64,000 nucleotides of DNA from a virus. Its lineage: Duplodnaviria; Caudoviricetes. Below the pieces are notes generated by a model. It was given only the letters and a program-made list of their open reading frames with translations, did no database searches and was not told where the DNA came from. The position numbers were made by a program, and so were the translations under genes. Location of the stretch: IMG/VR virus record IMGVR_UViG_3300023218_000062; one strand, 5' to 3'. Position 1 is the stretch's first letter, and the number at the start of each line of letters is the position of its first letter. Below, one piece after another: positions 9,199 to 59,119 of the stretch.

Positions 9199-9227
9199 AT
9201 CCTACAATGTTTAACTTGTTTTGTCAA
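9199..9227 (-). promoter_or_regulatory. sigma70-type promoter
   Basis: TTGACA-17 bp-TAGGAT. Confidence 0.65.
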
Positions 9228-10099: not shown

Positions 10100-11053
10100 T
10101 TAAACGTTGCCAATCAATGGTGCTTTTCCATCATCGATAATGGTCCATCCTAAATCATTAATTAAATAATTTCTAGCATCTTCAACATTGTCGAATTGCC
10201 CGGATATATTAGAAAATGTTTCTGTGGAATATAAAATACCTTCCGCATTTAACGTTTTACCTGTTACAACACCACCACGATCATATATATTATTTGCCCA
10301 TCCAAGTAGTGTTCTCGCGTAATTTTCGGGCGACATTGCCGACTGAAAGAACATAGTATTAAGAATAGCATTTGGGTTTAATTCCCAATTTTCTAAAGAA
10401 AAATTAAAATCTGACGATTCAAACATTCCTGAAAGAATTATTACTGTTGAAACATCCCATTCAGAGACTGATTTCATGGCCGACTCTTGCCAATTAGTTG
10501 TATTTGAAAACATTTCCTCTGCCGATATGGGCATATTTGGGGGGAGCGCCTCAAAATCCTCAATGTTTAAAAGGCTTCTTCCCTTGAATACATCAGTTGC
10601 AAATACAAACTCAGAATACATTAATTCCCCAAATTTAAACGAAGTAATACGTTCAGAAAGACTATCTGATAATATTTTAACAAAAGATAGTATATTATCC
10701 GACGAAATTTTTATTATGTATTGGCCGGATTCATTATAACTATGGTTTCTAGATACGGCATTACCTGACAAAATTTCAACGTTCCCATCCCCCCAGTCAA
10801 TCTCAAATTCAGTATTACCACCAAATCCCATAATAAGACCGCCGATTTCCAAATCATTAGTTAGTGTTGTATCAATATGTATGGACATTGGAATTAGTTC
10901 TTCATGAAACTCACTTTCATTCCCTCGTATTCTGGAAGGTCTTAAATTATCATGAAAGTAGATAAAATTTTCAGAATCACCGACTGCATCTATAAAAGTT
11001 ATAACAGGTCTATTAGAGTCATTAGGATTATTGGGGCTATATACAATAGTCAC
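10100..11053 (-). CDS. PKD-like plus DUF285/BspA-like repeat protein
   Basis: IDWGDG...HSY...GQYIIKI and WDVSTV..SGMF..S.FN..LENW repeats; TATAAATA upstream at 11079-11086. Confidence 0.75.
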   Translation of the reverse strand: MTIVYSPNNPNDSNRPVITFIDAVGDSENFIYFHDNLRPSRIRGNESEFHEELIPMSIHIDTTLTNDLEIGGLIMGFGGNTEFEIDWGDGNVEILSGNAVSRNHSYNESGQYIIKISSDNILSFVKILSDSLSERITSFKFGELMYSEFVFATDVFKGRSLLNIEDFEALPPNMPISAEEMFSNTTNWQESAMKSVSEWDVSTVIILSGMFESSDFNFSLENWELNPNAILNTMFFQSAMSPENYARTLLGWANNIYDRGGVVTGKTLNAEGILYSTETFSNISGQFDNVEDARNYLINDLGWTIIDDGKAPLIGNV

Positions 11054-17452: not shown

Positions 17453-19426
17453 ATGGCAACTATAAGATATAAATGCGATGCCTGTTTGCGAGAAGTAGAG
17501 CTTTTAGAGAACAAAACAGGGTTAACTACTCTATCAAATTGTATTATTACAGAGAATTGTAGGGGGTCATTATTCAAAATAAGAAGAAATAATCGTTCTC
17601 GTGTCAGCTTTGGTGAGGAAGATATTGATTTGAATAACAACCTTATGAATCGTAAGGAACGAAAAGTATTTTTTCCCTTTTCCAAAGATATTCCATCAAA
17701 ACGCTGGGTTGTTCGACATAACTTAGGTTCCTTTCCGGCTATTTCTGTCTTTATTGAAACTGATGATGGGATTAATATACGAGAAGCAAATAAGTCAGAA
17801 TATACTAGAAGAGATATCGACAAAAATACTTTAGAAGTTGTATTCAATGCAAACCAGACTGGTAAAGTTCATGCAATATCTAGAAGTATATCTGATCAGG
17901 ATATACCTCAATCTACGCTCGTAGAAAATACAATAAACATATCTCCTAATGGCACTCTTTCTATTGCAGTATTATCCAAAGCATTCGGGGAATCTTCTAT
18001 TGATCCTCAAAACCCTATAGATGTTAGATTTGATGTATCATTAAAAGAACCTAATGAAGAAGAAATTTTCTGCGTAGAAGAATTTAAGAATGGGCTTCGT
18101 TCCCCGTGGAGCGATTATCAGGCTATGTCTTTTAGAAAACGTAGAAATTATATTGTCAAAACAGTAAATTTATTGGATCTTAAAGTCATACAAGAAAGAT
18201 ACAATTCTTTAACTGAAATACCCGAATTGACTGAATTTAAGTTTAACAGTATTAGTTATAATGGATCTGTTTTTAAACCCATCCGATCAAAAAATGCTTT
18301 AATTTTGTTATCTTCTCCACCCTATACTAAATCAGATAAAATTATGGATAAAATTATAGATTTAGGTGAGCGAAATGAAGAAACAAGCGGACGAAAATAT
18401 ATTTTTTCTAATGGAAAGTTATTTGCAGTTGAAGATGATATAGAAAGAGTATATCCCCCTATAGAAAAAGATGATATTCTTTTTAAGGTCGATGATTCTT
18501 TTGGAATTGCACCTACACCTACTCCTACACCATCAGTATCTGAGAGTGCTACACCTACACCTACACCTACTCCTACACCATCAGTATCTGAGAGTGCTAC
18601 ACCTACTCCTACACCATCAGTATCTGAGAGTGCTACACCTACACCTACACCTACTCCTACACCATCAGTATCTGAGAGTGCTACACCTACTCCTACTCCT
18701 ACACCATCAGTATCATCAAATCTTTGGAGTCCAGCAGATACAACAACCTCTCTTTGGTTAGAAGGCTCAAATAGTAGTTCTTTTATATTAGATGGGAGTC
18801 TAATTGATTTATGGAAAGACTTATCCACTAACAATAGAGATGCATCACCTCCTTCTGGTAGACCTGCATATGATGCCCAAAATGGCGCTGTTGTATATGA
18901 TGCAAGTGAGCAATTACTAGCTCCACAATTTAATTTCTCGGAAGGTGTTGTTGCAATAGTAGCAGAACAAACGAACCCGTCGTCGACGCAACAAAATACT
19001 ATAATACGAGATGATAGTTCAGGAAATTGGAGACATCTTTTAAGATGGGTAAATCCTTCATCAGCGAGCGACTTTAATGCATTTATACAAACTGATTTAG
19101 CAGAGGGTATTGCTACCGTGACCTTGCCAAATGATCGAATTTTACTTATTGTTCGATGGATGGCAAGTGATGAATTACATATAGTACGAGAATCAGGCAA
19201 TATTATATATAATGAAACCCTAATTGGAAATAACTTATTACCAGCAAATGATATCAGCATTGGATCACACCCTACTGGTATAAATGGATTAAGAGGTAAT
19301 TTACACGAACTTATATATTTCCCAATGGATTCAGATATAGAAAAAGTCGAAGGTTATCTAGCGCACAAGTGGCAACTCACTAATAGATTGCCCACAAGCC
19401 ATCCGTATAAAAACAGTCCGCCTTGA
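17453..19426 (+). CDS. putative virion protein: N-terminal domain, Pro/Thr/Ser linker and LamG-like C-terminal domain
   Basis: [10 protein letters not shown] repeats; the C-terminus [23 protein letters not shown] is paralogous to the end of 47556-48023. Confidence 0.75.
18511..18714 (+). repeat. (TP)nSVSESA coding repeat
   Basis: Unit ACACCATCAGTATCTGAGAGTGCTACACCTAC(T/A)CCT. Confidence 0.95.
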
Positions 19427-19488: not shown

Positions 19489-20451
19489 TTAAACACTAAA
19501 AGGATATTTTATGGCTGGATCAGGAGTATAATTTTCCAACTTAAAATCATTTATGGTAATATTGTTTTCCACCTCTTCAAGTGAATTAACGTTTGGGACC
19601 TTTAATATAGGAGAGTTTTTTGGGGCTCTATTCATTTGTTCTTCGAAAAGATTTACTTGATTTTCATATATATGAATATCCGACATAAAATGTGTAAACG
19701 TACCTGCCTTCAGACCTGTAATAGATGCAACGATTTTTAACAGTAAGCAATAACTAACAATATTGAACGGTATTCCAATAGGAAAATCACATGACCTTTG
19801 GGTCATTGTTATGTTCAAATAGTCGCCTAATATACTAAACATATAAATCATGTGACAGGGAGGTAGGGCCATTTTATCAAGTTCCCCGGGATTCCAATGA
19901 TTAACAATTAATCTTCTATTATCATTTCTTTTTTTTAATTCTTCAATACAATTTTTAAGTTGGTCAATAGATTTTTCATTTGAGCTTTGCCATTTTCTCG
20001 CTTGAACTCCATAAATTCTGCCTAAATCATCTTTCCCCCTTCTATTAGGATTATTTAACCAGTAATCATTTTCATTAGCATTAGAATCCCAAATTTTGCA
20101 TCCTTCTTTGCGAAAATCTGCTGCATTGTCATAGCCTTTTATGAACCCTAAAAGCTCTGCTATTGCCGGTGTAATATTCATTTTTTTAGTAGTTAATAGA
20201 GGAAACTGGTCGGTGTTACTAAGATTAAATTGCATCATATCCCCGATAATGGTAAGACATTTACTATTTGTTCTATTATTAAATTTCCATTGGCCTTCGT
20301 TTAGTATTTTTTTTCCAACCCGTAGATATTCTTTGTCATATTTTTTCATGCATTTTTCTATATCTGCTTTATAGCCGGTACTGCAATCATAGCATTCTCT
20401 TCCTACTAAGTAATAATCCATCTGTGTAAGACATTTACTTTCTTCTTTCAT
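19489..20451 (-). CDS. thyA: thymidylate synthase
   Basis: FPLLTTKK, DLGRIYG.Q, MALPPCH, QRSCD...PFN and DIHIYENQ; start placed at the ATG at 20451. Confidence 0.95.
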   Translation of the reverse strand: MKEESKCLTQMDYYLVGRECYDCSTGYKADIEKCMKKYDKEYLRVGKKILNEGQWKFNNRTNSKCLTIIGDMMQFNLSNTDQFPLLTTKKMNITPAIAELLGFIKGYDNAADFRKEGCKIWDSNANENDYWLNNPNRRGKDDLGRIYGVQARKWQSSNEKSIDQLKNCIEELKKRNDNRRLIVNHWNPGELDKMALPPCHMIYMFSILGDYLNITMTQRSCDFPIGIPFNIVSYCLLLKIVASITGLKAGTFTHFMSDIHIYENQVNLFEEQMNRAPKNSPILKVPNVNSLEEVENNITINDFKLENYTPDPAIKYPFSV

Positions 20452-20559
20452 AATAAATTTCCTTTTATTTTTAAAATATATATTGATATTATATATGGAT
20501 TTAAAGAACAGCACAAGAGCAATAATATAAATATCATACATATAAAATAACATATCCCC

Positions 20560-22977
20560 ATGAAAGAAGGTTTGAACATAGATTTTAATACTAGAGTTTT
20601 AATAACAGAACACAACATTGACGAAATACATAGTGAAGGAGATGTTCTGCTAGATAAATCAAATGCCATTCATTCACAAAATATGGCTCGGGCTATTTCA
20701 AGAGCATTGTCTAGAGAACCTAATTCTTTTATTCATAGAATAGCTTTCGGAAACGGTGGTAGTTTCACTGATGCAGGAGAAACTACTATAATAAATCTAC
20801 CTAATGATGGTACTAGGGGAGATGGATGGGAATCTAGGCTATACAATGAAACATATTCAGAAATAATAGATGAAAATAATATTTTGGTGGGTACAGATCC
20901 GGGGTCATCTGGACCAAATTCTACTAGAATCGGTGGTGGATCAGTACCCAGTGAAGACCCTGAAGGGACCGGGGTTATATCTCTCGAAGTAGGTAGGAAA
21001 TCTAATATAATCGCTACTATGTTTTTAAATAAAAGTGAGCCTATTAGTCAATTGAGCCAAGGAACGATTGACACGGAGATAATTGCGGAAGAAAAATCTT
21101 TTGAATTTGATGAATTAGGTTTTTATACGACAGGCCAGCCTGCATCGCCTGCTCCAGCATCTTCTGTTATTGATGTTGGGAATAAAACATCGGAAGACCC
21201 TATCCCAACATCCATGTTGGGGAGCCAACTAAGTTTAAGTTATGAGATAAATGGTAATGAAAAGCAAACTGTATTTATAATCCCAAACATAGGTTCCGGG
21301 CCGCAGGGAGAAGTAACTTTCGGAGATTTGGCAGAAGGTATCAACACTGGTTCATGGTTTTCTAATAGTCCCGGCGATGATAGTACCACATTGATTAAAG
21401 TAACAATAACAGATCGTACTCCGGGTGCAGTATATCCAACTATTGCCGGTTCAGAAACGTTTGGGTTTTTGGTTTTTGAAAGTCTAACTGCCGGTGCAGG
21501 TAATACATTAAAACTTAATTGTAATTCAATTGGATCAGATATTTTATTTAATCTTACTGGAAATTGTGCGAAAATTGATGCCTCTATAAATACAGGGGTG
21601 GACGCTGGGGTTGCCAATGATGCGGAAAATCCTCAAAATGAAAGAGAGCGATTACTGACTCATCTTACATTTTCGCCCATTTTGAAAAAAGAAAATAGGG
21701 TATTAAAAATAGTATATACTCTCACCGTTTCAGTTTCACAAACCGGTGATTGTGTTCCAAACATAGAAAATAATATTCCCCCTATATCTCCAACCCCTAC
21801 ACCATCGGTATCTGATAGTGCTACACCTACCCCTACACCATCGGTATCTGAGAGTGCTACACCTACTCCTACACCATCAGTATCTGAGAGTGCTACACCT
21901 ACACCTACACCATCAGTATCTGAGAGTGCTACACCTACACCTACTCCTACACCATCAATGGGAGTAATATCTGAGAGTGCTACACCGACTCCTACACCAT
22001 CAATGGTGGGAGTAATATCTGAGAGTGCTACACCGACTCCTACACCATCAGTATCTGAGAGTGCTACACCTACACCTACACCTACACCTACTCCTACACC
22101 ATCAGTATCTGAGAGTGCTACACCTACACCTACTCCTACACCTAGCCCTAGTGCTGCAGTTCCAATGATATTAACTATGGACACCACCCTAAATCCAACT
22201 GGCACCGATGTAACATTGCCAATGAAAGGGCCGGGGGATGTTAGTGTTGACTGGGGTGATGGTACTGTAGATAGTTTCCAAAATAATACTGTAGACAGCC
22301 TGTTACAGTCCAGTCCACATAGTTATCCAGTTGATGGCGTATATACTATTACAATTACTGGAACATTAACCAAATTTGGTGATTTCGCTATAGATATGAA
22401 TGGAATTACCGGTGTTAATTCTTTCGGAGAATTAGGGATTACTAGCTTAAATGGGGCTCTATATAATTCAATAGAATTAACTACTTTACCAGATAACATT
22501 CCATCCTCTGTTACCGACATGTCATTCATGTTTTTGGTTGATCCAGATAAGCCCAAGAGTTTTAATATTAATATAAATTCATGGGATGTTAGTAATATTG
22601 TCAATATGGCTGGTTTATTCATGGGATGTATTTCGTTTAATCAACCATTAAATAATTGGGTCACCTCAAATGTTACTGATATGTCATTTATGTTTAATGG
22701 CGCAAGTTCCTTTAATGGTGATATTACAACATGGGATACATCATCTGCGAATAACATGACTACTATGTTCCAAAATGCTGAAGTCTTTAATCAAGATATT
22801 TCAAATTGGAATGTTTCTAATGTTACTAACATGGATTTTATGTTCTGGACTGCTTCAGCATTTAATCAAAATTTAAGCGGATGGTGTGTTACTAATATAA
22901 CATCGGAGCCAACTGGATTTAGTGATAATTCCCCCTTATCAACAGGAAATAAACCTGTTTGGGGAACGTGTCCTTAA
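20560..22977 (+). CDS. putative virion protein: tail-associated N-terminal domain, Pro/Thr/Ser linker, PKD-like and DUF285/BspA repeats
   Basis: IHRIAFGNGG, FEFDELG, VDWGDG and WDVSNVTNM..MF repeats; TATAAATA upstream at 20526-20533. Confidence 0.75.
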   Translation: MKEGLNIDFNTRVLITEHNIDEIHSEGDVLLDKSNAIHSQNMARAISRALSREPNSFIHRIAFGNGGSFTDAGETTIINLPNDGTRGDGWESRLYNETYSEIIDENNILVGTDPGSSGPNSTRIGGGSVPSEDPEGTGVISLEVGRKSNIIATMFLNKSEPISQLSQGTIDTEIIAEEKSFEFDELGFYTTGQPASPAPASSVIDVGNKTSEDPIPTSMLGSQLSLSYEINGNEKQTVFIIPNIGSGPQGEVTFGDLAEGINTGSWFSNSPGDDSTTLIKVTITDRTPGAVYPTIAGSETFGFLVFESLTAGAGNTLKLNCNSIGSDILFNLTGNCAKIDASINTGVDAGVANDAENPQNERERLLTHLTFSPILKKENRVLKIVYTLTVSVSQTGDCVPNIENNIPPISPTPTPSVSDSATPTPTPSVSESATPTPTPSVSESATPTPTPSVSESATPTPTPTPSMGVISESATPTPTPSMVGVISESATPTPTPSVSESATPTPTPTPTPTPSVSESATPTPTPTPSPSAAVPMILTMDTTLNPTGTDVTLPMKGPGDVSVDWGDGTVDSFQNNTVDSLLQSSPHSYPVDGVYTITITGTLTKFGDFAIDMNGITGVNSFGELGITSLNGALYNSIELTTLPDNIPSSVTDMSFMFLVDPDKPKSFNININSWDVSNIVNMAGLFMGCISFNQPLNNWVTSNVTDMSFMFNGASSFNGDITTWDTSSANNMTTMFQNAEVFNQDISNWNVSNVTNMDFMFWTASAFNQNLSGWCVTNITSEPTGFSDNSPLSTGNKPVWGTCP
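21790..22150 (+). repeat. (TP)nSVSESA coding repeat
   Basis: Same DNA unit as 18511-18714. Confidence 0.95.
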
Positions 22978-24602
22978 TCGTTATATTTATTTTCTACTCG
23001 TTCATCTTTGCCATAATGTGATATTCTATGGTGGGTGATAGGTGACGCTAATATACATCCAACAGTAAGCTTATTTTCTCTTATTGCAATTTGTGCTTCG
23101 GCCATTAAAGCGCTTTCTGACATTTTTTTATGTGTGTAACAATATTTAATGAATTTATCATTTCCATTTTTACTAAAAAGTATAGGCCAATTACAGTAAT
23201 AATATTCTCCTATATTATATGCTAATCCCCGATAACAATTACTGTAATATAGTTTGGTTCTCATTTCTGGAATATTTTTAAGATATAGAAATTTTTCTTT
23301 TCTGGCGGGGTCTAAATTGTACCATGCCCAATTAGTATGATTGTCACCAAAAAATTCTGAAAAGGTTAATTTTAAGTAATCTAATTCATTTTCTTCTAAT
23401 ATAGAAATTGCTTTGTTAAATAACTGTTTATCATATTTTTTAAAACCTGCATTGCATGTTTCTCCTTCTTTTTCCCTTCCATTAACTAACATATCATCTT
23501 CAAAAAAAATCATATACGAATGTATAGATTTTGCAAAATGTTCGGCTGCATATTGTCTCCCCCCAGTAATTCCTATGTTATTAAATTTATACTCTGTTAA
23601 ATCATATTCTCTTATTATTTTATCATATTCTTTATTAAGTTCTTTATTAGTTGAATTATTTAATAGGTATTTCGGAGATTTTTTGAAAATTTCGGGGAAA
23701 TTTGTTTTAAAAGCAGATAAGCATTTTAATAACTGTTTTGGTGCATTAAAAGTCAAAAAGTATAATGCTAGTTTATTATCATTTTCTTGTTTTCTATTTT
23801 TTACTCTTTCAAAATATGAATTAATTAGTCCATTAGATTCTATCATTTGAACATTAAACAAGTGCTTATGAGTATAACTTATAATAGTGAACACAGACTC
23901 CTCAGTTCCCATGTAGCCCTGTTTTAAACTATCTTCAAGGGTTCGGTAGTATACATCATTAACCTTGTTTACAGCTTCTTTGGTGCCTCCAAAGAATCCT
24001 CCACGACATACATATTTGGTATCTTCACCAGCAAGTTTATTCATTCCTTCTTTTTTAAATCCATGGACTTCATTTTGCCCATTATATGGGAATGCTAGAT
24101 ATAACATTTTGTTCTTTTTAACGTCTTCTATGAGTTTTTTGTCAAATTGATCAACACTAAAATATGATTGTATATTGACGGTATTACTTATTCCTGCATC
24201 TATCCAAAAGAAGTATCTAGAATTAAAAAAGTTGTTTAATACACTATCATTAAGCTTAAATTGCTTTGACATTACTAGTGGGTTATAATATTCTAGTTTT
24301 GCTTGGGGGCTTTGTTCTAGCCACCCTGCCTGTGAATACCAGTTTTTATCATTTCGTATTTTATCTACCTGTTCTTTAAACGGAAAGTGTATATTTCTTA
24401 CAATAACTTTAGTGTTATCTGGCTTTCGATGTTTCCATATAAAATCTGAAACCTCTTTATCACAATAAACCACTAAATTAATATCCTGATCCAGCAATTT
24501 TTTAAACGCTTCGAGGTACTGATTCATAGACCGTTTAAAATTATCTTTTAGATTATCTCGGTTCAAATTATATAATGCAGTAACAAAGGTTATATCATTC
24601 AT
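22974..24602 (-). CDS. HtrL/YibB(WlaTC)-like glycosyltransferase fused to a second GT-like domain
   Basis: TFVTALYNL, FFWIDAG, GGFFGG and GYMGTEESVFT; C-terminal IFFEDD domain. Confidence 0.7.
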   Translation of the reverse strand: MNDITFVTALYNLNRDNLKDNFKRSMNQYLEAFKKLLDQDINLVVYCDKEVSDFIWKHRKPDNTKVIVRNIHFPFKEQVDKIRNDKNWYSQAGWLEQSPQAKLEYYNPLVMSKQFKLNDSVLNNFFNSRYFFWIDAGISNTVNIQSYFSVDQFDKKLIEDVKKNKMLYLAFPYNGQNEVHGFKKEGMNKLAGEDTKYVCRGGFFGGTKEAVNKVNDVYYRTLEDSLKQGYMGTEESVFTIISYTHKHLFNVQMIESNGLINSYFERVKNRKQENDNKLALYFLTFNAPKQLLKCLSAFKTNFPEIFKKSPKYLLNNSTNKELNKEYDKIIREYDLTEYKFNNIGITGGRQYAAEHFAKSIHSYMIFFEDDMLVNGREKEGETCNAGFKKYDKQLFNKAISILEENELDYLKLTFSEFFGDNHTNWAWYNLDPARKEKFLYLKNIPEMRTKLYYSNCYRGLAYNIGEYYYCNWPILFSKNGNDKFIKYCYTHKKMSESALMAEAQIAIRENKLTVGCILASPITHHRISHYGKDERVENKYND

Positions 24603-25393
24603 ATATCAAGTTCCTTGATGATTTTGTTGTACGGTAAATTATAATAATTGTAATAAACACCTATGGCCTCGCCGTTCACAATGTTTTTAGGGTTATTATA
24701 TCCGGCTTTAGCTAATGAAATTCCCAGTTCGTAGCTTTCTCCCCACGGTACACAATCACTTTTTTGTAATATATAATTCAATCTTCTTAGTTCACTTGCA
24801 AACAACTCTATTTTATTATTTTCGTTTTTTAATATAAAAAAATGTTCACTGGGTAACCCTACATTATAGGAATCTGGAGGATTTTCTTTTTTTTCATACA
24901 CTCGTTTTTTATGATTATATATTGAATTTTCTCTATCCCATTCTTGACCTAATGTATCTCCCATTCTTGCACCAACCATATCGTATTCGCCTTTTATAAG
25001 TGTTTCATATATGAAATTTTCGTTTTCGTCTGTTAATTCTAATGCAGAATCGCAATCTATAAAAAAGACGATATCATACTGTTCTATGTTGGGGATATTT
25101 TCAAAACATAGAATTTTTAAAGTGCAATTGAATTTTTTAGGACCATTAATTGCTCTTAAACGTTCTTCATGTTCTGGGATATCAGTAAAAATCTTTAAAT
25201 CTTCTGTGATATTATTACGCGATTTTACTCTGTTTGATTTAATAATATCACCGGGTTTGTTGGTTGATACTAATATATCATGCTTGGTTTTCTGCAATAA
25301 AGATTCTATTAATTGGTTACAATAACTAATATATCTGCCATCAGATTGGTCCACACATAATAGAGTGAACAGTAGTTTACCGTTGGTGTTCAC
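24599..25393 (-). CDS. putative glycosyltransferase
   Basis: VFFIDCD (DxD) and W.DE-like WGES motif; lies in the GT cluster. Confidence 0.5.
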   Translation of the reverse strand: MNTNGKLLFTLLCVDQSDGRYISYCNQLIESLLQKTKHDILVSTNKPGDIIKSNRVKSRNNITEDLKIFTDIPEHEERLRAINGPKKFNCTLKILCFENIPNIEQYDIVFFIDCDSALELTDENENFIYETLIKGEYDMVGARMGDTLGQEWDRENSIYNHKKRVYEKKENPPDSYNVGLPSEHFFILKNENNKIELFASELRRLNYILQKSDCVPWGESYELGISLAKAGYNNPKNIVNGEAIGVYYNYYNLPYNKIIKELDI

Positions 25394-25414
25394 ATTATAA
25401 TCCTGTAAATCAAT

Positions 25415-26062
25415 TTAAAAATCATAATCGAATATATCAATTTCTTTCTGGCAATTTTCTTTAATCATATTATATGTCTCTTCTTCATAATGTTCTCTAT
25501 AGTCTTTTTTGTGTGATAAATCTACTATAGTTTTAATTTCAGTTCGTGTGTGTATTTTTTTGTGTGTCCCGTCTATTCCAAATGTTTTAAGAAAATCTTT
25601 CATTTTATTATAATTATTATAGTTAATATAGTAGTTTATAAGATCTTCTTGTGGATCAAAAATTTTCAATTTTTTATTTTGCGCTCTATACGGTATATAG
25701 GATTTTAATAAAAATCTTTTTAGGCTTACATCTTTTTTTAGCAATTCTTCGCGCGATAATTTTTTAAAGTTTTTAAAATAAAAAAAATTTTCTTTAAAAA
25801 ATCTTTTTTCATCTAATGCATGATAATAATAAGAAATCGCATGTTCCCATGGATTTCTTATTATACAACTTACTAACCAATTATTTATTGAAGGTGCTAT
25901 TAGCTTTTTGTAAATTATTGGGTTGTTTTTTTTCAGAAACTCTATACCAGTATGCATCGGAAAAGTATGATAGTTCATCGTTCCACAATTTACATGGATG
26001 CTACCAGACGCGGTTTTAGGCATTTCAAAATGTAAATGTTTTCGTTGTTCGTTAATAACCAT
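25415..26062 (-). CDS. sulfotransferase family 2
   Basis: HFEMPKTASGSI (5'-PSB) and IIRNPWEHAISYY (3'-PB). Confidence 0.8.
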   Translation of the reverse strand: MVINEQRKHLHFEMPKTASGSIHVNCGTMNYHTFPMHTGIEFLKKNNPIIYKKLIAPSINNWLVSCIIRNPWEHAISYYYHALDEKRFFKENFFYFKNFKKLSREELLKKDVSLKRFLLKSYIPYRAQNKKLKIFDPQEDLINYYINYNNYNKMKDFLKTFGIDGTHKKIHTRTEIKTIVDLSHKKDYREHYEEETYNMIKENCQKEIDIFDYDF

Positions 26063-26873
26063 CTATTATATCTTTCAATGCATCTTTTAACGATACTTTT
26101 TGTTTATCATTCTTCTTATGTATTCCCATATAATCAAAATAACATTTTTTTATTTTATAATTTTTTAATATATGAGTGAATATAGATTCTTCAGTTACTA
26201 ATACATTGTTATCTAATAAGAAATCTAATTCATTATAAAAATGGTTATGGATATTCATGTTGTCTACTTTGAACAATCCCCCTATGGCTGAAGGTTCTTC
26301 AATATAACTAAATTTTGTATCATATATTTTATAATTTTTATTATTTGGACGATTGTGATAGAAAAAAATTGATGAATATTTCGTGTCTAATTTAAGTAAT
26401 TTTTCACCATTGAGAATATCTAAATCTATAAAGTTATTTCTTTCTTTAGTATTTTTAACATTATTCAGGGGAAATACGTCCCCATGTAGCAAACCCGAAT
26501 CGATCCAAAAAGTACATCCATACTCCCTCATCCATATCAACTTTTGATAAATAAGTTCAAAACACCGATTAGATAATCTTACAGGGTTATAGTTTTGTAT
26601 TAATTCTATATTATTTCTAAGATGTTGTATTTTTCTGTGATAATCACTTTTACACAAATCTCTAAATACAAATTCTATATTAAAATTTTTTAAAAGATAT
26701 TCGTGCCCCGACCGTATTAATTCATATGTATGGTGATCTGTGAAACAGTATATGTTTATGTCTGGGCAATACTTGGCGATAATGTTCAACGAACCACAAT
26801 ATCGCGGCAGCCTCCCCAATCTCCCACCTAATTTACTTTTATCGGTGTCATATATACAAGTTGCTATTTTCAT
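26052..26873 (-). CDS. HtrL-like glycosyltransferase
   Basis: FWIDSGL, IGGLF and LVTEESIFT, paralogous to motifs in 22974-24602. Confidence 0.55.
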   Translation of the reverse strand: MKIATCIYDTDKSKLGGRLGRLPRYCGSLNIIAKYCPDINIYCFTDHHTYELIRSGHEYLLKNFNIEFVFRDLCKSDYHRKIQHLRNNIELIQNYNPVRLSNRCFELIYQKLIWMREYGCTFWIDSGLLHGDVFPLNNVKNTKERNNFIDLDILNGEKLLKLDTKYSSIFFYHNRPNNKNYKIYDTKFSYIEEPSAIGGLFKVDNMNIHNHFYNELDFLLDNNVLVTEESIFTHILKNYKIKKCYFDYMGIHKKNDKQKVSLKDALKDIIDGY

Positions 26874-26948
26874 TTCTTATACTCATATATTTTTTACTAG
26901 TCTACGTCCTTTCATTAGGAAATTTTATTTTTATGGGAGTGATATCGT

Positions 26949-27230
26949 TTAATAAGTAATACTTATTAGCAGTACATTATTTCTTTTTAATGTCTTTCTT
27001 ATTTTGTCTAAACAATTTTGCCTTTGTTTATCTGAAAGACTTTTTATTTGTTCTGATTTGGGTTTTAATGTTTTGGTTTTTCGTATGTTTATCAGGTTTC
27101 TGGTTTCAACGCTATTTCCGATTTTTATCAACAAGTCTTGGTGAACACTATTATATTCAGTTGACAAAAGCTTCCCGCCTTTTGATTTTATTATTTTATC
27201 TACTTCATCAATCGTCAACTTTTGGGGCAT
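26949..27230 (-). CDS. homing-endonuclease-type DNA-binding repeat remnant
   Basis: KLTIDEV..II.SKGGKLLSTEY.S..Q.L; no nuclease domain follows. Confidence 0.45.
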   Translation of the reverse strand: MPQKLTIDEVDKIIKSKGGKLLSTEYNSVHQDLLIKIGNSVETRNLINIRKTKTLKPKSEQIKSLSDKQRQNCLDKIRKTLKRNNVLLISITY

Positions 27231-27236
27231 AATTAA

Positions 27237-28640
27237 TCATCCGTCTACGTTTTTAGTAACCTTATCTAACCACCCGCCAGATTTGCTGTGGGGCCATACA
27301 GTATACGTGCTTGGGGCTACACTTGACAAGAAAATGAACCGATAATCAATAAACTCGTTACCGCTGGTCACATATTTCTTGAATTGTGGTCCTGATAAGT
27401 CTTTTCTATGTATTTCATTTCCATCTACATCATGTGCGCCCACAAAACAGAAATCTATGTCATCTAATACTTTACCATTATCAAATGCCGAAGGAAATTC
27501 ATTTTTATGTACACATACTCTTACGTCATTTGATCGCGCAAACGATTCTTTCCATTCTTGTTCATTTGAATATGGTATGTTAACCGGAGGTTCTTTTTGA
27601 TCCAGTGTTGGTTGCTGTACACCCCTATGCTCGAAACTAATTCCTGCATACTCTTCATATTGTCGTAATGTCCTTTCATTACCAAATCCATATTTACCAA
27701 AATCAATCTGATTGGGGTCTTCACCATTCATTCCAAATAAAACCCTATTTCTTTTGTGGGCCATGTTATTTCTTTCCACCCAATCCTTTTCAACTTTTCC
27801 TTTCTTTTTATTTATAGTTGTATGATCATCCCACACTTTAGTTCTACCTTTTCTGGTATATTCATGCCATATCAGTAACTTATGTGGTGTAAACAGATCG
27901 TATCCATGAGTATATGCTCTAGCAGATATTGAGATTTCTTCTCCATGAAAGAAACAGAATTTATCATGTTGTACATCTTCTGCAAACGATCCGTCAGCGA
28001 AACAAAAATGGCCAGAATAAAATCTAGCACGTTGAGGTCTATCACGCTCTTTCCAATTTTTCATTTCAGATGGTATAAAGAACACTGCACCTTCTGGTAT
28101 AAACCTATCAAAGTTTGTTTGCCATGGTATTTGTACTCTTCCATTAGGATCATTTTCAGGATTATACGAAGGTATATAGCCCGTTAAAATAGGTTTTGGA
28201 GTATCCGAAGTTCTAATACTTTCTAACATTTCTATTAATTCTTTATCCCAATATTCTATAAATCTATGATGGGAATCCAACTGTAACGTATATTTTTCTC
28301 CATTATATTGTTGCTGAATTAAATTTCTAGCCCAGCAGGTTCCTTTAGTTTCTGTATAGTTTAGGTCTATTAAATCAACGGATGCTTCATTTTTATTAAG
28401 TTCTATGATATTAACTTCTTTTTTTATATCATCAATATCGATAAATTTATATGTTCTATAACTCCTTACATCAAAATCTGCATCCAAAAAATCATCTATA
28501 CTTTGCTCGTCACCATGCTGCCAATTTACCATTATATGTAAATTTTCTGGATATACACTATTACATATCATATTTTCAAGCGTGGGTATTAACTCGGGGT
28601 CTCTATAGCTTGCTATTTGAACAAATATTGTATCTTCCAT
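27237..28640 (-). CDS. GT60-like GlcNAc transferase (Skp1-hydroxyproline/mucin-type family)
   Basis: IFVQIASYRDPEL, GTCWAR, LQLDSHHRF..WD, FYSGHF.F and GEE...S.RAYT.GYD.F.P; TATAAATA upstream at 28673-28680. Confidence 0.85.
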   Translation of the reverse strand: MEDTIFVQIASYRDPELIPTLENMICNSVYPENLHIMVNWQHGDEQSIDDFLDADFDVRSYRTYKFIDIDDIKKEVNIIELNKNEASVDLIDLNYTETKGTCWARNLIQQQYNGEKYTLQLDSHHRFIEYWDKELIEMLESIRTSDTPKPILTGYIPSYNPENDPNGRVQIPWQTNFDRFIPEGAVFFIPSEMKNWKERDRPQRARFYSGHFCFADGSFAEDVQHDKFCFFHGEEISISARAYTHGYDLFTPHKLLIWHEYTRKGRTKVWDDHTTINKKKGKVEKDWVERNNMAHKRNRVLFGMNGEDPNQIDFGKYGFGNERTLRQYEEYAGISFEHRGVQQPTLDQKEPPVNIPYSNEQEWKESFARSNDVRVCVHKNEFPSAFDNGKVLDDIDFCFVGAHDVDGNEIHRKDLSGPQFKKYVTSGNEFIDYRFIFLSSVAPSTYTVWPHSKSGGWLDKVTKNVDG

Positions 28641-28684
28641 CGTATTAAACGCACCATCTGTATACACCGCTATATTTATATAAG

Positions 28685-42827: not shown

Positions 42828-44507
42828 ATGCCTGTAACGTGTAAGATATGTAACAGAGAATTTGCTACACAAATAACAAATACACATCTTAAAACCCATG
42901 GTGTCACAACAGAACAGTACAAAGAGCGTTTTGGGGTAGATTCTCTTTCGTCTAAAGAATATATAAAACAACGTTCGCTTAAATGTCGAGGAACCAATAA
43001 CCCTATGTATGGCAAGAATCATTCAGCCATTTCTAAGACACAAATGTCTAATAATCGAAGAAATAAACCCGGCAGAACTGGTCCTATTTCTGATATCGGG
43101 AAACAAAATATAATGCTTGGCGTGGAGAAGAGAGAAGAAAAATATTCCAGCGGAGAGCTTCAGAGGACGAGTCATAATTTTACCGAAAATGACCGAAAAA
43201 AAATATCAAATTCTGTGAAATCTTATGCCAAAGATCATCCAAATGAGTTATCTGCACGAGGGTCAAAAGCATACAAAACCGCGTTAAAAAATGATAATTG
43301 GATGGCGCCCATGACCCGACTTAAAGCTGATGACCCGGTTAAATATTATTATTTGCGGAAGCAGTCATCAGAATCAATCAAAAAGGCCAATGATCTGAGA
43401 TCAAAAAGGCTTAATGAGAAGATACTTAATAATATATCAAAATCTAATTTTAGTGTATTAGGGGATATACTATCTGAAAAAACTGGACTTCATACATATA
43501 ATTTGATGTGCAATGTATGTAAAACCAAGTTTTCATACACTCGCCAATATTTTACTGATTCCAAGTTTAATCCTGAGTGCTGCCCAGCTTGTTTTCCTAG
43601 AGATCGTAGTACTAGTATTGCAGAGGATGAAATTGCAGAATATATAAGCGCATTTCCTGTAAAAGTAGTACGAAACGACCGAACAATATTAGATGGGGGT
43701 CGTGAAATTGATATGTATTTGCCAAATATAAATCTGGCGATTGAATATAATGGATTATATTGGCACTCCCAAAAAACTCTTGAAAGTGCTAATCGAGATA
43801 AACACGCGGATTATTATAAGTATTTGGAATTACACGCCAAGGGGGTACAACTGATTTCTATCTATGAAGATGAATGGATAAAATCAAAGAATATAGTTAA
43901 AAGTATTCTTAGATATAAGCTAGGCATGGTAAGTAATAAAATACATGCAAGAAAATGTGCTGTACGAGAAATAACCACAGATGCTGCGCGGGCGTTTTTA
44001 AATCAAAACCACATTCAAGGATATAATAAATCTAAAGTTAAATTAGGATTATATTTTAACGGCAATATTGTGGCAGTTATGACCTTCTCCAAAGGAAACC
44101 TATCTAGAAAGTCATCTGCGTGGGAAATAGATCGGTTTGCATCATTATTAGACACATCCGTAATAGGTGGAGCCAACAAATTGTGGAATCATTTTCAGAA
44201 AACGTATGATCCTACTGTGGTTGTTTCATATGCCGACAATAGATGGTCAAATGGGAAGTTGTATGATATATTGGGGTTTTCTTTTCAAAAAAACACCGTT
44301 CCGAATTATTGGTATTTTAAACCGAATGAATTAAGGAGGGTACACCGTTTTACGTTACGCAAAAACTCTTCTGATTATAAAAATTTAACCGAATATGAAA
44401 ATAGATTATTACAAGGATATCTACGGATATGGGACTGCGGAAGCTCTAAGTGGATATGGGAAAAATCACATCCTGAAAAACCCCCTGTTAAAGGGGGTTT
44501 GTTTTAG
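42828..44507 (+). mobile_element. free-standing homing-endonuclease-like gene (Zn finger, NUMOD3-like, PD-(D/E)xK/DUF559-like and GNAT-like C-terminal domain)
   Basis: CKIC...H...H, NNPMYGKNHS, EIDMYLP...AIEYNGLYWHS, FLNQNHIQG, VSYADNRWS and IWDCG; antisense to the tail operon. Confidence 0.75.
44478..44500 (-). terminator. intrinsic terminator of the sheath gene
   Basis: AAACCCCC-TGTTAAA-GGGGGTTT, inside the 3' end of the convergent endonuclease gene. Confidence 0.7.
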
Positions 44508-47555: not shown

Positions 47556-49747
47556 TTACGGTGGTGCATTTTTATATGGGTGGCCAGTAGGTAGTAGATT
47601 TTCTAAATTAAGCTTGTGCAGAGCCCACCCCTCCAACTTCTGGCGATCTGATTCACTCGGTGCTTGTGCTAGATAACCTCGCATTGCTATGTGGCCACTG
47701 AACCTGATGTTCCCCGATCCTAAATCAGCAGCGGCCGAACCATTTTGATTTTCAGTGTTGGCGGTTGTTTCCGCTCCACCATTGAGCCTAAGTCTTATAA
47801 GACCATCACTATACTCTTGGCCAGCCATCACCCACTGTGATAAAAGTATAGATTGTTCAGTAAACCTTGCGGATCCATCCCAATGATACGCAATAACATT
47901 CGGTCCTGAGCCTGTATCCCTCATCATCAAGTTGTGCCATCCAGCACTGTTGTCCCCAGATATGGCGGCATTAAACCATAACGTACCAAGATCAGATGCA
48001 TTCGTTGGCAAAAAACCGCCCAATCGTAGTAGCTGCCATCTATCGCGCCAACATCAAAACCGTTATCAAAATTCCCGGACATAGGAGTCCCAGTAGAAAA
48101 CTCAGCAACGTCGCCAACAGTCGAGTCATTGACAAGCGCTACGCCGGAGGATGCACCGAACGTAAATGAACCACCATTAACATCTTGTAGTTGTGTCAGA
48201 TTTGTACCATCGTCGGTTCTAAAGTTTTGTTCAGTGGTATCGAACCATATAGAACCAGATATATCGGCAGGTGTCCATGTGCCACCCACGACACTCTCAG
48301 ATACTGATGGTGTAGGTGTAGGCGTAGCACTCTCAGATACTGATGGTGTAGGAGTTGGTGTAGCACTCTCAGATACTCATGGTGTAGGTGTAGCACTCTC
48401 AGATACTGATGGTGTAGGAGTTGGTGTAGGTATTACGTTTACATCCGACCCGATTTGGAAATATTCTTTCCCATCTTGTATTATACTAAGTTGATCTGAA
48501 CTAGGATCTTCTATAGGAAAACTTATTATAGTCGATGTGGGATCTGTATCATCATATGTAAATGTTTCATCCCATTGACGTATTTTAAGTGCTTGTGCTA
48601 TACGATCTATTCTACATGCAAAAGCATTTATTGCATCTTGACTGCCTGCAAATGCTAGCCCAACTATTTTTTTAACACCATTAAATTCTGCTATTAGTGC
48701 AGATCCAGAATCTCCACCATCAATTATGCCATCACTCCCGTCAGAATGTTGGTAATGTATTATATCCCCGAATGGAATTGAAAAACTCCCATTATCAAAT
48801 CCCACATTTATATTAACGCTCAATCCTACCGCTTCTATTGTGCAGGCAGGATCTGTTCCCCATCCCTTTGGTCCTGTTGTTCGTCCCACAGAAAACATTT
48901 TCGGTTTGGGAGAATCTAATAAACTGTCTATTTCTAACGTAGATGCAAATGGTAAAAATTCGTTGGATTCAGTCACTCCCGAAGGATGGTGTATTTTGAA
49001 CGAATCAGTTTCACTTATATTTTGTGGATTCATTATAAGCAGTGCAACATCTACATAATTCATTCCACCGTCATTGCGAATAGGGTGATATCTTTTAATA
49101 TCAGATGATACACTAATAATGTTATCTGCGAATCCAGTTCCGCTTCTTGCTCTCGCAGACGAAGAGTATGGTTGGCCATCCACAGGCCAATTAAATTCTT
49201 TTTTTGTATTATATGGATTATTACTTTCTTCATTTTTATCTCGATTTGAAGTAAATAATAATTTATCTACTACAACATGGGCATTAGTTACACCTACAAT
49301 TTTATCATCTATATTATCCACTCCAAAAAATCCTAAAGTCCCAAGACTGAAACCCGTCGGCGCTCCTGAAGAATTAACTGCCCAATCAAGCGGAAACTTT
49401 ATTATTTCTTGGCCGCCCTTTAACGGTGTAATTAATGATGGGTTTCCTCGTAATTTCAGTATATCTGGGTCATTAGGGTCAGAAAAACATCCCATGAATT
49501 TTATATCGGCTATTTCTTTAACATCAGTTTTAATTCTCATTCCGTCGATTTCGAGTTCTTCGGGAACTATTTCAGAAGGTGATAGTTGATTTAGAGGTTT
49601 TTTTTCAGAAACACTTACTCTTATACATATCTCTTCTGTTTTTTCCCCATTTTTTTCTTTTCTGGAGATTGATATAGATTTACAATTGTATTTATTTTCT
49701 TTAAAGAGTTTTTCTATTCTGTTTTTTATGTTTTTATTGATATCCAT
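47556..49747 (-). pseudogene. trypsin-like serine protease, Pro/Thr/Ser linker and LamG-like domain, split by a TGA and a frameshift
   Basis: Triad TNAHV/DVAL/GDSGS in 48377-49747; a TCA>TGA change in one repeat copy (48377-48379) is in frame with 47927-48289; a shift at the A6 run near 48010-48015 leads into 47556-48023. Confidence 0.75.
48290..48431 (-). repeat. (TP)nSVSESA coding repeat
   Basis: Same DNA unit on the minus strand. Confidence 0.9.
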
Positions 49748-49750
49748 TTT

Positions 49751-52700
49751 TTAATTCTCCCATGTTATAAAAATAGTAGAGATTCCACTTAAATTTGATG
49801 GTGTAGGTGTAGGTGTCGGTGTCGTGGGTGTAGCACTGTTAGATATTGATGGTGTTGGAGTAGGAGTAGGAGTTGTGCTCTCAGATACTGATGGTGTCGG
49901 AGTTGGTGTGGCACTCTCAGATACTGATGGTGTTGGCGTTACTGTTGGCGTAGGGCTGAAGCCACTGCTTTGTGTAGGCGTGGGTGTAGGAGTTGGCGTA
50001 GTAGGTGACAGTAATGGTGTTGAACTTGGGTTTGGCAACATTACGCTGTTATTTTCACCACATTCAAATTCTGATGCAAATACTTGTAATATATCTTCAT
50101 CGTTTGATTCATTTAAAGACACACGATTTGATACATCAATGGATACCCAAGATGTTTTAAATATATCAGGATGCTTCTTATTAAGTGAAACTGAACGTTC
50201 TAATAATTCAAAGAATATATCATTTATTTCTGATGGTGTAAATGATTCATATATAGATTTATAAAAATCTCTAATGTCTTCAATTCTTTCTAAATCAAAT
50301 TTATCTACAAATTCTTCGATATCAACTTGCTGCCATTCTCTTGAAGGATCAAATAATATATCCATAGTCAAATTTATAATTTCAGATTTATCCATAAGAA
50401 CTCTACCATTATACATTCCAACTCTAGTAGTGGCACCATCTACTAAAGTGTCAAAGCGAATTCTGCTTTCGCTAGGAAGAAGAGATTCCATATCAATATC
50501 AAAGTCATCATTAAGTACGACTCTTTCAGTAGAAGCTTCTATAACTTTTTTCCATAATAATCTATCTACCCTAGATGATTGGTTTTTCCTAATTAATTTC
50601 CATGACCAATGTTTGTTACTTAATTTGAGATTTTTATTGTTCATTCTATCGCGTAGAGTATAGTCTTTACTAAGACGCAATATATAATTATTATTATCTT
50701 TTACTGTTCTGCTAAGACCTTTAATTGTAACTAAAGAGAATCTTGTGGGTAATGTGTTATCCTCTGGATCATATGTACTTCCAAATAATACGCCATACCC
50801 AGTTCCTTCATCTCTAAATCCGTGTATTATAGCGAACGGCTCTGACATTATTTTATATTCTCGTTCCGCATCAAATAATGTTAACGCTGTATCTTCTAAC
50901 AACTTTTCTGAGCGCATGTCAGATACCCAATAAAAATATACATACTCTTCTTCTAACGAGTTTACATTAAATTTTCTAACTCTAGTGTGTGGATATATTA
51001 TAATATATTTTTGTTCTTCTATTTCTTCATCAGTTGGCTCATGCGGCTCTTTAACAAGAGTTAACATGTCTTTTTGTTGTATATTTCCATCAGTTATTTC
51101 ATCATTTATCATACCTTCTAAAACTGTTGGAGTATCATATATTATTTGCTGAAAAAATTTTCCGTTAACATATACATCTAGCACATCTCCGGATGAGAAC
51201 ATATGTGTATCGCGAGTTTCTTCATATCCTGTTATCGGAAATTTACTAACTACTGTAATCTCTTCTTTCCATATGGGTTCTTGTAACGTTCCGATATTCT
51301 TATAGACTATTCTTCTAGGAGATCCAGTAATCTTTTCCGATAGTTCTATTCTTCTATTTTCATCTTCTTTAACCCGTTCTACATATTCTTCGGGTGAAAG
51401 ACTTGTGCTTATCCATTTGTAAAAAGTCACATCGCCAAAATCTTCTAATTGGCCCCATACTAAGCTTCTTTCATCCTCTGTTAAATAAATATTTTCGTCA
51501 AAATATGGTTTATAAAATTTTCTAGATGTATCTGCCCATACTTTTCCAACTTGTTTTGTATTCCAGTGGTTTTGTGACACTCGATCTTCATTTAGGTCAT
51601 TTGTATATTTTGCCGGGTCAGTTGGTCTCTCTATATCTATTGGAAACTCTCCAAGGGGGTTATGTTGGTCTAACGCTGGGTTCCATATCGGGATTTCTTT
51701 CAATACCTTTTCAGGTCTAGTAGTTTCAATTAAACGCAATGGATTTTCTTCCTCATATGCATATGTTAGTGTTATTATTGTAACATTTTCCCATTGGTCG
51801 AAATCATCGGCTATAAACTCTAAAATTGTAGAATTTATAAATCTAAATGATAAACCTTCACTAGCATTTTTTTCTTTTCCATCCAAAATATAGGTTACTA
51901 TAGCTCCATATGCTGGTTTTGATAATTCTACAGATTTATACCCTGTACCTCTTTGGAACGGCGTAAATTTCGCAATACTCTCGGCGTTAAATATAATTTC
52001 TTGTTCTTTGGCATCGAAAAAATATCCATTATGTGGCTTCATTAATTCAATTACATCTGGGAGATTATTCCACCTATCTACGTCATTTAATCTGATGGCA
52101 ACCGCATTTCTGGTTAATAGACCACCTGTTGGTGGGGCAAATTCAAGTCGTAGTTCTTTTTTAACTACATCGTCAGTTTTTAGTTTTATTTCCGGATAGG
52201 CTTTTCTCTTGGAATCACCAAATTCACATAGTCTATATGCCCAATATTCATCTACACTGACATTATCTAATAGTCTATGTCCGGTAAATGCTGATAAAGA
52301 GTTGTTTGTCCCTTTATTTTGTATAAATGATTTCCAAAATATAAACTGAGATTTTTCATCTATTCCAAGATCAAACATAAATTGATCTGGCCCGCCATAC
52401 CCAACAGACTCTTTTGCTTTTATAGCCGTTTTATCCGTTTCTATTGATTTGTATGGATCATAATAATATCGTATATCTTCTATAGATTTTTCTATACTAT
52501 CTATTAAAGATTCATTATTTAATACTAATCCTCCAACGCTGGGTCTTCCGGTTTTATTTTTAGGTTTTAAATATTCTAACAGAACTCTAGGTGTTGCTAT
52601 ACCTAAAAACGAATCATATATTAATTTACCGCCGGTAGTATATGAGTCAAAATTGCATATATGTCCAACATCAAATAACGATATGCTCCCGCCGCCTATA

Positions 52701-58700: not shown

Positions 58701-59119
58701 TCTGTCCAATAATAATCTTGAAAGTTTATTATTTTATCAATATCAATAGGTGGATAAAAATTGAATTGAAGTGTTTTCCCCCATTCTTCAAAAGTGTCTA
58801 TATTAATACCTTCATTTTCTAGGGTCCTCATGAATTGTTCAAATGTTAAAAATTCAGAGTTATTTCCGGTTTTCTTTTTTATAACTGGTTGTAATTGATT
58901 TTTCTTAAGAAATTCTCTATTTTCGGGTATTTTGTTTAATATTGCATTCTGCTTTTCGCGACCTACATAACCGGTTACCTTCTCAAAATTTCTCTTAGTG
59001 AAAAATCTATTGAATATATTATCTGATATACCTTCTAATACATCAGTTCTAATATGTTCTGGTATAAGAGACGTAGCATCTACTACTTCTCCGGTTTTGT
59101 AATCATTATTTCTTGGCAT
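49751..59119 (-). CDS. giant (3122 aa) baseplate/virion structural protein with Pro/Thr/Ser tail
   Basis: Lies next to gp6- and gp25-like genes; [14 protein letters not shown] and [14 protein letters not shown] segments; function inferred from synteny. Confidence 0.7.
49797..50010 (-). repeat. Pro/Thr/Ser coding repeat (more diverged copy)
   Basis: [14 protein letters not shown] units at the C-terminus of the giant protein. Confidence 0.85.

Follow-up and report, generated by a model that had tools for sequence, protein, structure and literature searches.

A candidate O-glycan cassette with a GT60-like glycosyltransferase and a predicted sulfotransferase beside TP-rich proteins in an uncultured XacN1-related jumbo phage

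Introduction

Glycosylation of phage virions is known from very few systems, and it affects immune recognition, stability and adsorption. The described phage closest to the subject of this report is Xanthomonas phage XacN1, whose virions contain at least two periodate-Schiff-positive proteins and whose authors proposed that ORF334 and ORF328 glycosylate virion proteins; its DNA could be digested with BssHII, NaeI and SpeI and behaved normally in sequencing (PMC5852040). Two of the enzyme families concerned have a literature of their own: those GT60 enzymes that have been characterised initiate mucin-type O-glycosylation of Ser/Thr-rich domains, the next steps being carried out by a bifunctional glycosyltransferase (GT) (PMC8724618), and HtrL_YibB is an uncharacterised family associated with lipooligosaccharide (LOS) (PMC4172580). 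Here we analyse a 64,000-nucleotide (nt) stretch of IMG/VR record IMGVR_UViG_3300023218_000062 (Caudoviricetes), hereafter called the window, and within it a cassette of six co-oriented minus-strand open reading frames (ORFs) that fills positions 22974–28667 and includes a GT60-like gene. The reading that we favour, and to which we would give slightly better than even chances, is that the cassette carries out cytoplasmic O-glycosylation of virion proteins rich in threonine-proline (TP) sequence, and that the glycans are sulfated in the window phage.

The XacN1 ORF329–ORF334 locus, which has equivalents in Xanthomonas phage Xoo-sp13 (Xoo-sp13_299–304) and in Stenotrophomonas phages CM1 and RAS14, resembles the cassette in having an orthologous GT60 gene (ORF334, 58% identity), a gene for a 546-amino acid (aa) HtrL-GT2 protein (47%), an HtrL-like gene and a convergent neighbour (ORF329, 47% identical to the N-terminal domain, or N-domain, of the gene that is convergent to the cassette in the window). 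In XacN1 and Xoo-sp13 the genes lie where they do in the window, downstream of PolB, RNase H and NUDIX, in the order GT60, carbamoyltransferase, HtrL-like gene, ORF, 546-aa HtrL-GT2 gene and convergent 402-aa N-domain homologue. The loci differ in the slot between the shared genes, which holds a 765-aa carbamoyltransferase and ORF331 in XacN1 and a sulfotransferase, a GT6-like GT and a 93-aa ORF in the window, and in that TP repeats and a DUF285 domain lengthen the convergent neighbour of the window, unlike that of XacN1. The virion-glycosylation idea is already in print, as a proposal, for this relative, and the novelty that an earlier, sequence-only reading of the window saw in the system is reduced to that extent. 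PMC5852040 does not describe the cassette as one unit, how widely it occurs or that its slot varies, and the searchable literature gave no description of a virion-glycan pathway with a phage GT60 or a phage sulfotransferase.

Results

Spread of the cassette and its variable slot

The GT60 and HtrL enzymes form a conserved viral core, and the genes between them occupy a swappable tailoring slot. A search for related loci with the single GT60 protein returned nothing, whereas with a three-sequence alignment as the query, full-length homologues of GT60 came up in 59 viral contigs (viral metagenome contigs or loci with homologues are designated by L-numbers below). In more than 35 of these contigs a gene of the window's 542-aa HtrL-GT2 type adjoins GT60, often together with a short HtrL-like gene. 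The GT60 loci fall in at least six gene contexts, and a GT60 gene is present in 4 of 50,697 deposited phage records.

In the window the slot contains the sulfotransferase and the GT6-like GT; XacN1, Xoo-sp13, L010, L011, L016–19 and L022 have a carbamoyltransferase there, and there is a polysaccharide pyruvyltransferase (PS_pyruv_trans, E 1e-9) in L007–9, the closest relatives of the window (GT60 67% identity); elsewhere it contains a UDP-galactopyranose mutase (GLF, 2e-74), a GT10 fucosyltransferase (1e-15) or GT25-like genes. Since the slot genes all tailor or supply sugars, the product would be an elaborated glycan whose decoration differs by lineage, and these family assignments support the view that the cassette serves as a unit for building and tailoring glycans.

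One of these contexts is that of a T4-like group, L034–L051, with two tandem GT60 paralogues (~36–42% identical to that of the window) between a UvsX/RecA-like gene and PolB, followed by HtrL and HtrL-GT2 genes and sometimes by a GT10 fucosyltransferase gene.

Linkage of GT60 genes to TP-rich proteins

Adjacency and genome-level co-occurrence both link the GT60 genes to TP-rich proteins. For the adjacency measurement the loci were dereplicated at 90% GT60 identity, and an ORF was counted as TP-rich if at least 70% of the residues within a 40-residue span are S, T or P. Such an ORF is contained in 12 of the 44 dereplicated loci, and in eight it lies immediately beside GT60, where random placement within the same loci gives an expectation of 2.1 (P = 0.0002); with coarser dereplication at 60% identity, the immediate neighbours number 3 in 14 loci against 0.6 expected (P = 0.012). 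Several of these TP-rich neighbours match virion structural families in PHROGs, and one has a crAss muzzle domain. At the level of whole genomes, the (TP)4-coding sites number 30 in XacN1, 21 in Xoo-sp13 and 20 in CM1, all of which bear GT60 (controls gave 0–1), and there are none in RsoM2USA (a sister phage), SCTP-2, Hallingskeid and XbC2, which are jumbo phages without GT60, one of them a Xanthomonas phage.

In the window, the Pro/Thr/Ser-repeat protein that the sequence-only reading placed directly against the cluster is real, and its 805-aa gene lies tail-to-tail with the 542-aa gene with a 4-nt overlap (Table 1). The TP repeats take up ~125 residues (~405–530; DNA 21796–22144) between the C-terminal DUF285 domain and the N-domain (residues 1–400; DNA 20560–21760), which is conserved in jumbo phages (phrog_11259) and is part of a family that numbers more than 800 members with 45–70% identity. 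The N-domain gene is convergent to the cassette in every member of the XacN1-like jumbo clade, whether or not it carries TP repeats. Comparison of its fold gave partial, moderate matches to a tail-sheath outer domain (Z 9.1 and 8.8), to FliD D2–D3 (Z 6–7), both of these through its central domain, and to baseplate or fibre proteins in BFVD (E ~1e-4), which are a weak hint that the N-domain may be part of the virion.

The repeat of the 805-aa protein recurs in at least four further places in the window, namely in a 657-aa protein, in a 3122-aa protein and in both the 456-aa and the 149-aa pieces of a split gene, and two of these other TP-repeat proteins fall in families annotated in PHROGs as "virion structural protein".

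The split gene owes its division to the TGA at 48377–48379, at a place where other copies of the repeat have TCA (Ser) ("...ACA CCA TGA GTA TCT GAG AGT..." versus "...ACA CCA TCA GTA TCT GAG AGT..."). The frame is otherwise unbroken, and a tail-region protein of ~605 aa is thereby divided into pieces of 456 and 149 aa; the TGA could be a nonsense mutation, an error in assembly of the repeat, or a site of read-through. Three independent assemblies of the window phage (L003–L005) all end inside the DUF285/TP-repeat gene (window ~22700–22980), which is consistent with near-identical repeat DNA in five genes confusing the assemblers.

Enzymes of the cassette

The co-oriented cluster of a GT60-like enzyme, two HtrL-like GTs, a DxD GT and a sulfotransferase described in the sequence-only reading is present in full on the minus strand, and our searches support each of the family calls (Table 1). 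The GT60-like protein, which probably starts at the ATG at 28640, scores 252.9 bits against PF11397 (cut-off 21) and covers positions 1–351 of the 352 in that profile. It has a DSH (DxH) motif in the sequence QLDSHHRF, in which the D, S and H are invariant among 31 viral homologues, and its residues ~350–476 form a C-terminal extension (~120 aa) that is conserved in the viral homologues. The protein is predicted to be an initiating polypeptide N-acetylhexosamine (HexNAc) transferase. The 93-aa ORF that follows it resembles, in its first 22 residues (50% identity), a small ORF located after GT60 in L084.

Of the two HtrL-like proteins, the 542-aa one is recognised by Pfam (HtrL_YibB, 52.9 bits, cut-off 24.1), and HtrL_YibB is matched in all 17 of its 17 orthologues. 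Seven of the same 17 also match Glycos_transf_2 in their C-terminal half (best 3.9e-8), where an EDD motif is invariant across the family; a search of the PDB with the family profile gave no relevant structure. The 273-aa protein is placed in the HtrL family by hhalign only, with no match in Pfam, NCBIfam or PHROGs: its alignment to the HtrL profile extends over 215 columns (probability 91.6, E 8.3e-7) and includes WIDxG and TEESIFT motifs that the two have in common. With tblastn it weakly matches XacN1 ORF332 as well as many viral loci. Both HtrL-like proteins are predicted to be GTs.

The DxD GT, a 264-aa protein, has no Pfam match at E 10 and none in NCBIfam or PHROGs, and was assigned through an AlphaFold model (pLDDT 83.6), for which the best PDB matches found by Foldseek are GT6 blood-group and alpha-1,3-Gal transferases (E 4e-8, probability 1.0, TM 0.45–0.53). 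D113 and D115 of the DxD motif are invariant among homologues, which include proteins from cassettes L012 and L051. Identity in the structural alignments is ~10%, and we file the protein as a GT-A fold, GT6-like enzyme and not as a member of CAZy family GT6.

The 215-aa protein has no Pfam match of its own, even at E 10, and none in NCBIfam or PHROGs, and a word-indexed search for homologues returned only the protein itself. An exhaustive HMMER search gave 36 relatives; PF03567 (Sulfotransfer_2) is matched by 21 of the 32 aligned homologues (best 1.2e-27), and all significant PDB matches of the family profile, and 15 of the 16 at E ≤ 1, are sulfotransferases. Its 5'-phosphosulfate-loop motif is HFEMPKTASGS (PKTxxxS) and its 3'-phosphate motif is IIRNPWEHAISYY; the family profile aligns both to sulfotransferase 5x2b, and K16, R69, N70, P71 and S77 are invariant in the family, with K16, R69 and S77 corresponding to the Lys, Arg and Ser that bind 3'-phosphoadenosine-5'-phosphosulfate (PAPS). 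We predict that it is a PAPS-dependent sugar O-sulfotransferase. When seven of its homologues (27–47% identity) were looked up, six were found to adjoin a GT60 and/or a 542-aa type gene, among them that of L084, where the GT60 is 77% and the sulfotransferase 42% identical to those of the window; being embedded in GT60/HtrL cassettes in this way, the sulfotransferase belongs to the cassette.

None of the six cassette proteins contains a hydrophobic or membrane-like segment (maximum KD19 ≤0.97), which is in keeping with cytoplasmic enzymes that are soluble, as the Skp1-type GT60 enzymes are (PMC8724618).

Table 1. Positions of the cassette genes, TP-repeat proteins and other glycosyltransferase or sulfotransferase genes in the window
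Feature	Position	Strand	Evidence
GT60-like (PF11397) glycosyltransferase	27237-28667	-	PF11397 E 8e-75; phrog_24687 E 1.8e-161
93-aa ORF between GT60-like and HtrL-like genes	26949-27230	-	no family match (Pfam, NCBIfam, PHROGs)
HtrL-like predicted glycosyltransferase, 273 aa	26052-26873	-	hhalign to HtrL-domain profile
Predicted Sulfotransfer_2-type sulfotransferase, 215 aa	25415-26062	-	HMMER homologues matching PF03567
GT-A fold, GT6-like predicted glycosyltransferase with DxD, 264 aa	24599-25393	-	AlphaFold model and Foldseek
Two-domain HtrL+GT2 protein, 542 aa	22974-24602	-	PF09612 E 5.4e-14, residues 3-252
Candidate acceptor, 805 aa: N-domain, TP repeats and DUF285	20560-22977	+	translation, tandem repeats, DUF285 E 1.1e-49
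Second TP-repeat protein, 657 aa	17450-19426	+	repeats DNA 18510-18702; C-terminal part phrog_10356 "virion structural protein" E 8e-14
Split TP-repeat protein beside tail-sheath stabiliser gene	47927-49747	-	in-frame TGA 48377-48379 within repeat
Virion structural protein, 3122 aa, candidate acceptor	49751-59119	-	phrog_10938 E 7.9e-75; TP repeat near C-terminus, DNA ~49869-49940
Second sulfotransferase, 205 aa	9224-9841	-	PF17784 Sulfotransfer_4 E 9.3e-7, 29.3 bits (cut-off 22.8)
Sialyltransferase-like (DUF115/MptE-like) predicted glycosyltransferase, 211 aa	16795-17430	+	phrog_4603 alpha-2,3-sialyltransferase E 3.1e-24
TOD1/MUCI70-like predicted glycosyltransferase, 239 aa	172-891	-	PF04765 E 5.6e-9; phrog_26101 glycosyltransferase E 8e-21

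The window phage and other genes of the window

The window belongs to a jumbo myophage related to XacN1. Its genes include those for a PolB of the T4 type, for RNase H, for a tail sheath with a stabiliser resembling gp15, for a baseplate wedge and for the 3122-aa structural protein. The nearest deposited relatives of its PolB are those of Xanthomonas phages Xoo-sp13 and XacN1 and of Stenotrophomonas phages CM1 and RAS14 (43–45% identity), and the next is that of Ralstonia phage RsoM2USA. The window has a G+C content of ~33% and originates from metagenome assemblies, in which the longest contig reaches 246 kb. A search of sequencing runs placed the stretch in four DNA metagenome runs, all from one study, and listed no RNA runs that contain it.

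Pfam or PHROG matches support all three of the outlying genes noted in the sequence-only reading, the GT-like genes that begin at 172 and 16795 and the second sulfotransferase gene at 9224 (Table 1). The sialyltransferase-like protein also has a weak match to PF01973, and its gene is kept beside ThyA in L007–L009. BLASTP finds no similarity between the window's two sulfotransferases. The second one is encoded close to another DUF285 protein (10100–11053), an arrangement that echoes that of the cassette and the DUF285-ended 805-aa protein.

The ThyA homologue (19489–20553, minus strand) has Ala in place of E. coli ThyA Trp80 (GVQARKW), as does that of L007, and the L010 protein has Gly. Because of this replacement across the clade it was considered as a possible dUMP hydroxymethylase, and rejected: a T5-like thymidylate synthase encoded beside DHFR has Gly at the same position, and the window protein has the dUMP-specifying Asn and a ThyA-type C-terminus. 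Ala or Gly at this position therefore appears to be a trait of the subfamily and does not point to a hydroxymethylase. The listed ThyA ORF has a long N-terminal extension that is probably untranslated. A plus-strand ORF at 42828–44507 (559 aa) has weak matches to ROS/MucR, NUMOD3 and the Mom family (Mom E 3e-5, below the cut-off) and might be a DNA-modification or homing-type gene; it has no relation to the cassette.

Discussion

If the cassette does act on TP-rich virion proteins, the GT60-like enzyme would place the first HexNAc, probably N-acetylglucosamine (GlcNAc) from host UDP-GlcNAc, onto Thr or Ser in the linkers of the 805-aa, 657-aa, 3122-aa and split 456/149-aa proteins. The HtrL-like, GT6-like and two-domain HtrL-GT2 enzymes could then lengthen the glycan by as many as about four sugars, and the Sulfotransfer_2-type enzyme would sulfate one of the sugars from host PAPS. 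The tailoring would vary with lineage, with sulfate in the window phage, carbamoyl in XacN1 and a pyruvate ketal in the window's closest relatives, and a swappable slot means that related phages would display differently decorated glycans. Such glycans might serve as protease-resistant extended linkers, in masking or in adhesion. The sequence-only reading had proposed extended, possibly sulfated O-glycans on TP-rich stalks, and the comparative evidence above supports the cassette as a unit, the membership of the sulfotransferase in it and the TP link; the Thr/Ser acceptor, GlcNAc as the first sugar, the sulfate and the "glycocalyx", like every enzymatic activity and biological role proposed here, are what we infer from these observed gene families, conservation, slot variability and TP link.

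Several observations weigh against this reading. The three cultured genomes that are rich in TP sites, XacN1, Xoo-sp13 and CM1, form one clade and are not independent of one another, and the complete GT60-bearing genome of L010 has only two (TP)4 sites; the co-occurrence of cluster and repeats across jumbo phages that the sequence-only reading had put forward as a check holds for the three GT60 genomes with 20–30 sites and the four GT60-less genomes with none, but not for L010. No TP-rich ORF is present within 10 kb in the 16 loci of the T4-like tandem-GT60 group. The cassette lies in the company of replication genes, namely PolB, RNase H, NUDIX and ThyA, rather than of late genes; pathways for lipopolysaccharide (LPS) and capsule also typically include HtrL, GT25, GLF and pyruvyltransferases; and no PAPS-synthesis gene was seen in the window. 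Finally, neither phmmer nor the 31-sequence profile found a PDB chain for the GT60-like protein at E ≤ 1, in a copy of the database in which the presence of the Skp1 enzyme is unconfirmed, and the closeness of the viral family to characterised GT60 enzymes is therefore that given by the Pfam model alone.

The enzymes could instead remodel the glycans of the host envelope during infection, adding sugars and sulfate to the LPS or LOS core, O-antigen or capsule and so removing the receptor of superinfecting phages or altering the cell surface. Loci for LPS and for the LOS outer core do include HtrL_YibB proteins (PMC4172580), the slot genes (GT25-like, GLF, GT10, PS_pyruv_trans and carbamoyltransferase) are classic polysaccharide enzymes, the position among early/replication genes fits early action, and Iyer and colleagues read the GT clusters of jumbo cyanophages in this way (PMC7824862). 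We nevertheless consider this explanation unlikely, given that the known members of the initiator's family act on polypeptides (PMC8724618), that a priming phosphoglycosyltransferase, a flippase, a polymerase and membrane segments are all absent from the cassette, that the TP-rich adjacency and genome-level co-occurrence would be left unexplained, and that in XacN1 the glycoproteins are on the virions themselves. It is less probable still that the true target is something else, such as the 400-aa domain of the convergent neighbour, phage or host proteins that are not part of the virion, or a glycoconjugate that is small and soluble, with TP linkers as bystanders that are common in fibre genes. 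That domain comes from its large family of over 800 members and stays beside the cassette throughout the jumbo clade, TP repeats or not, and many cassette contigs have no nearby TP-rich ORFs; on the other side, the adjacency excess and the contrast between genomes favour a link to the TP tracts, and cassettes from outside the jumbo clade lack the 400-aa neighbour but repeatedly have TP-rich ones.

Hypermodification of DNA with an oligosaccharide, in the manner of T-even glucosylation or the ~1-kDa thymidine adduct of YerA41, is the alternative to which we give least credence. Its attractions are the neighbouring PolB, RNase H, NUDIX and ThyA-homologue genes and weak matches of the 542-aa family to DNA glycosyltransferases (phrog_842, E 0.0024; TAGT in 2 of 17 orthologues, E 9e-4), and a phage carbamoyltransferase reportedly acts on 5-hydroxymethylcytosine. 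Oligosaccharide adducts of DNA do exist in YerA41 (PMC9023294). However, the GT2 matches of the 542-aa family are far stronger than those to TAGT, neither a pyrimidine hydroxymethylase nor a TET/JBP gene was found, the ThyA homologue retains the Asn that specifies dUMP and its ThyA-type C-terminus, and XacN1 DNA was digested by BssHII, NaeI and SpeI (PMC5852040). O-glycosylation of TP-rich virion proteins remains the reading that we favour.

A broader interpretation, which we advance more tentatively and at somewhat less than even chances, is that the cassette is a widespread, modular viral O-glycan factory. In it a GT60-like initiator and HtrL extenders would be fixed, and a swappable slot (sulfo-, carbamoyl- or pyruvyltransferase, Galf supply or fucosyltransferase) would coat TP-rich fibres and other proteins of the virion in a mucin-like layer that is specific to the lineage and often anionic; the product in the window phage would be the first sulfated glycoprotein that a bacterial virus makes. 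If this is true, one recognisable cassette marks glycosylated virions in many uncultured phages, marine and other, and in four cultured jumbo phages, and the slot is a natural experiment in glycan diversification, for which host defences, proteases or attachment to polysaccharide matrices may provide the driving force. A dedicated sulfotransferase subfamily in viruses would be new to enzymology, as bacteria rarely have sulfated protein glycans. These ideas can be tested directly, since XacN1, Xoo-sp13, CM1 and RAS14 are cultured and virion proteomics of XacN1 is public (PXD008065).

Relative to known virion glycosylation, what appears to be new here is a distinct enzyme set, the swappable tailoring slot and a dedicated sulfotransferase subfamily. 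Virion glycosylation of the mycobacteriophage Che8 type is similar in that at least two phage GTs encoded beside capsid genes reportedly modify virion proteins in the host cytoplasm, but it is said to use unrelated enzyme families in Gram-positive hosts, to place glycans on the C-termini of capsid and tail-tube proteins, and to have no sulfotransferase. The glucosylation of hydroxymethylcytosine in T-even phages and the oligosaccharide-thymidine of YerA41 (PMC9023294) likewise involve phage GT-A enzymes encoded among replication genes, but those systems need a hydroxymethylated base, for which no enzyme was seen here, and the DNA of XacN1 is restriction-sensitive. Chlorovirus PBCV-1, as cited in PMC5852040, also has a virus-encoded pathway for structural-protein glycans that does not depend on the endoplasmic reticulum and includes several GTs and tailoring enzymes; it differs, in the account cited there, in being a eukaryotic virus with atypical N-linked capsid glycans made by other GT families. 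The mucin-type and Skp1 pathways begun by GT60 pp-alpha-GlcNAc transferases in the protists Dictyostelium and Trypanosoma cruzi share with the cassette the PF11397 family, a DxH of the ppGalNAc-T type and a soluble enzyme, and their acceptors are Thr/Ser/Pro-rich mucin-like repeats on which a bifunctional two-domain GT acts next (PMC8724618), comparable to the TP repeats and the two-domain HtrL-GT2 protein of the window. Unlike the protist enzymes, the viral GT60-like proteins have an extra C-terminal domain of ~120 aa, and their putative extenders are HtrL, GT2 and GT6-like instead of GT2, GT74 and GT77; the Skp1 pathway has no sulfation step, whereas the window cassette includes a predicted sulfotransferase.

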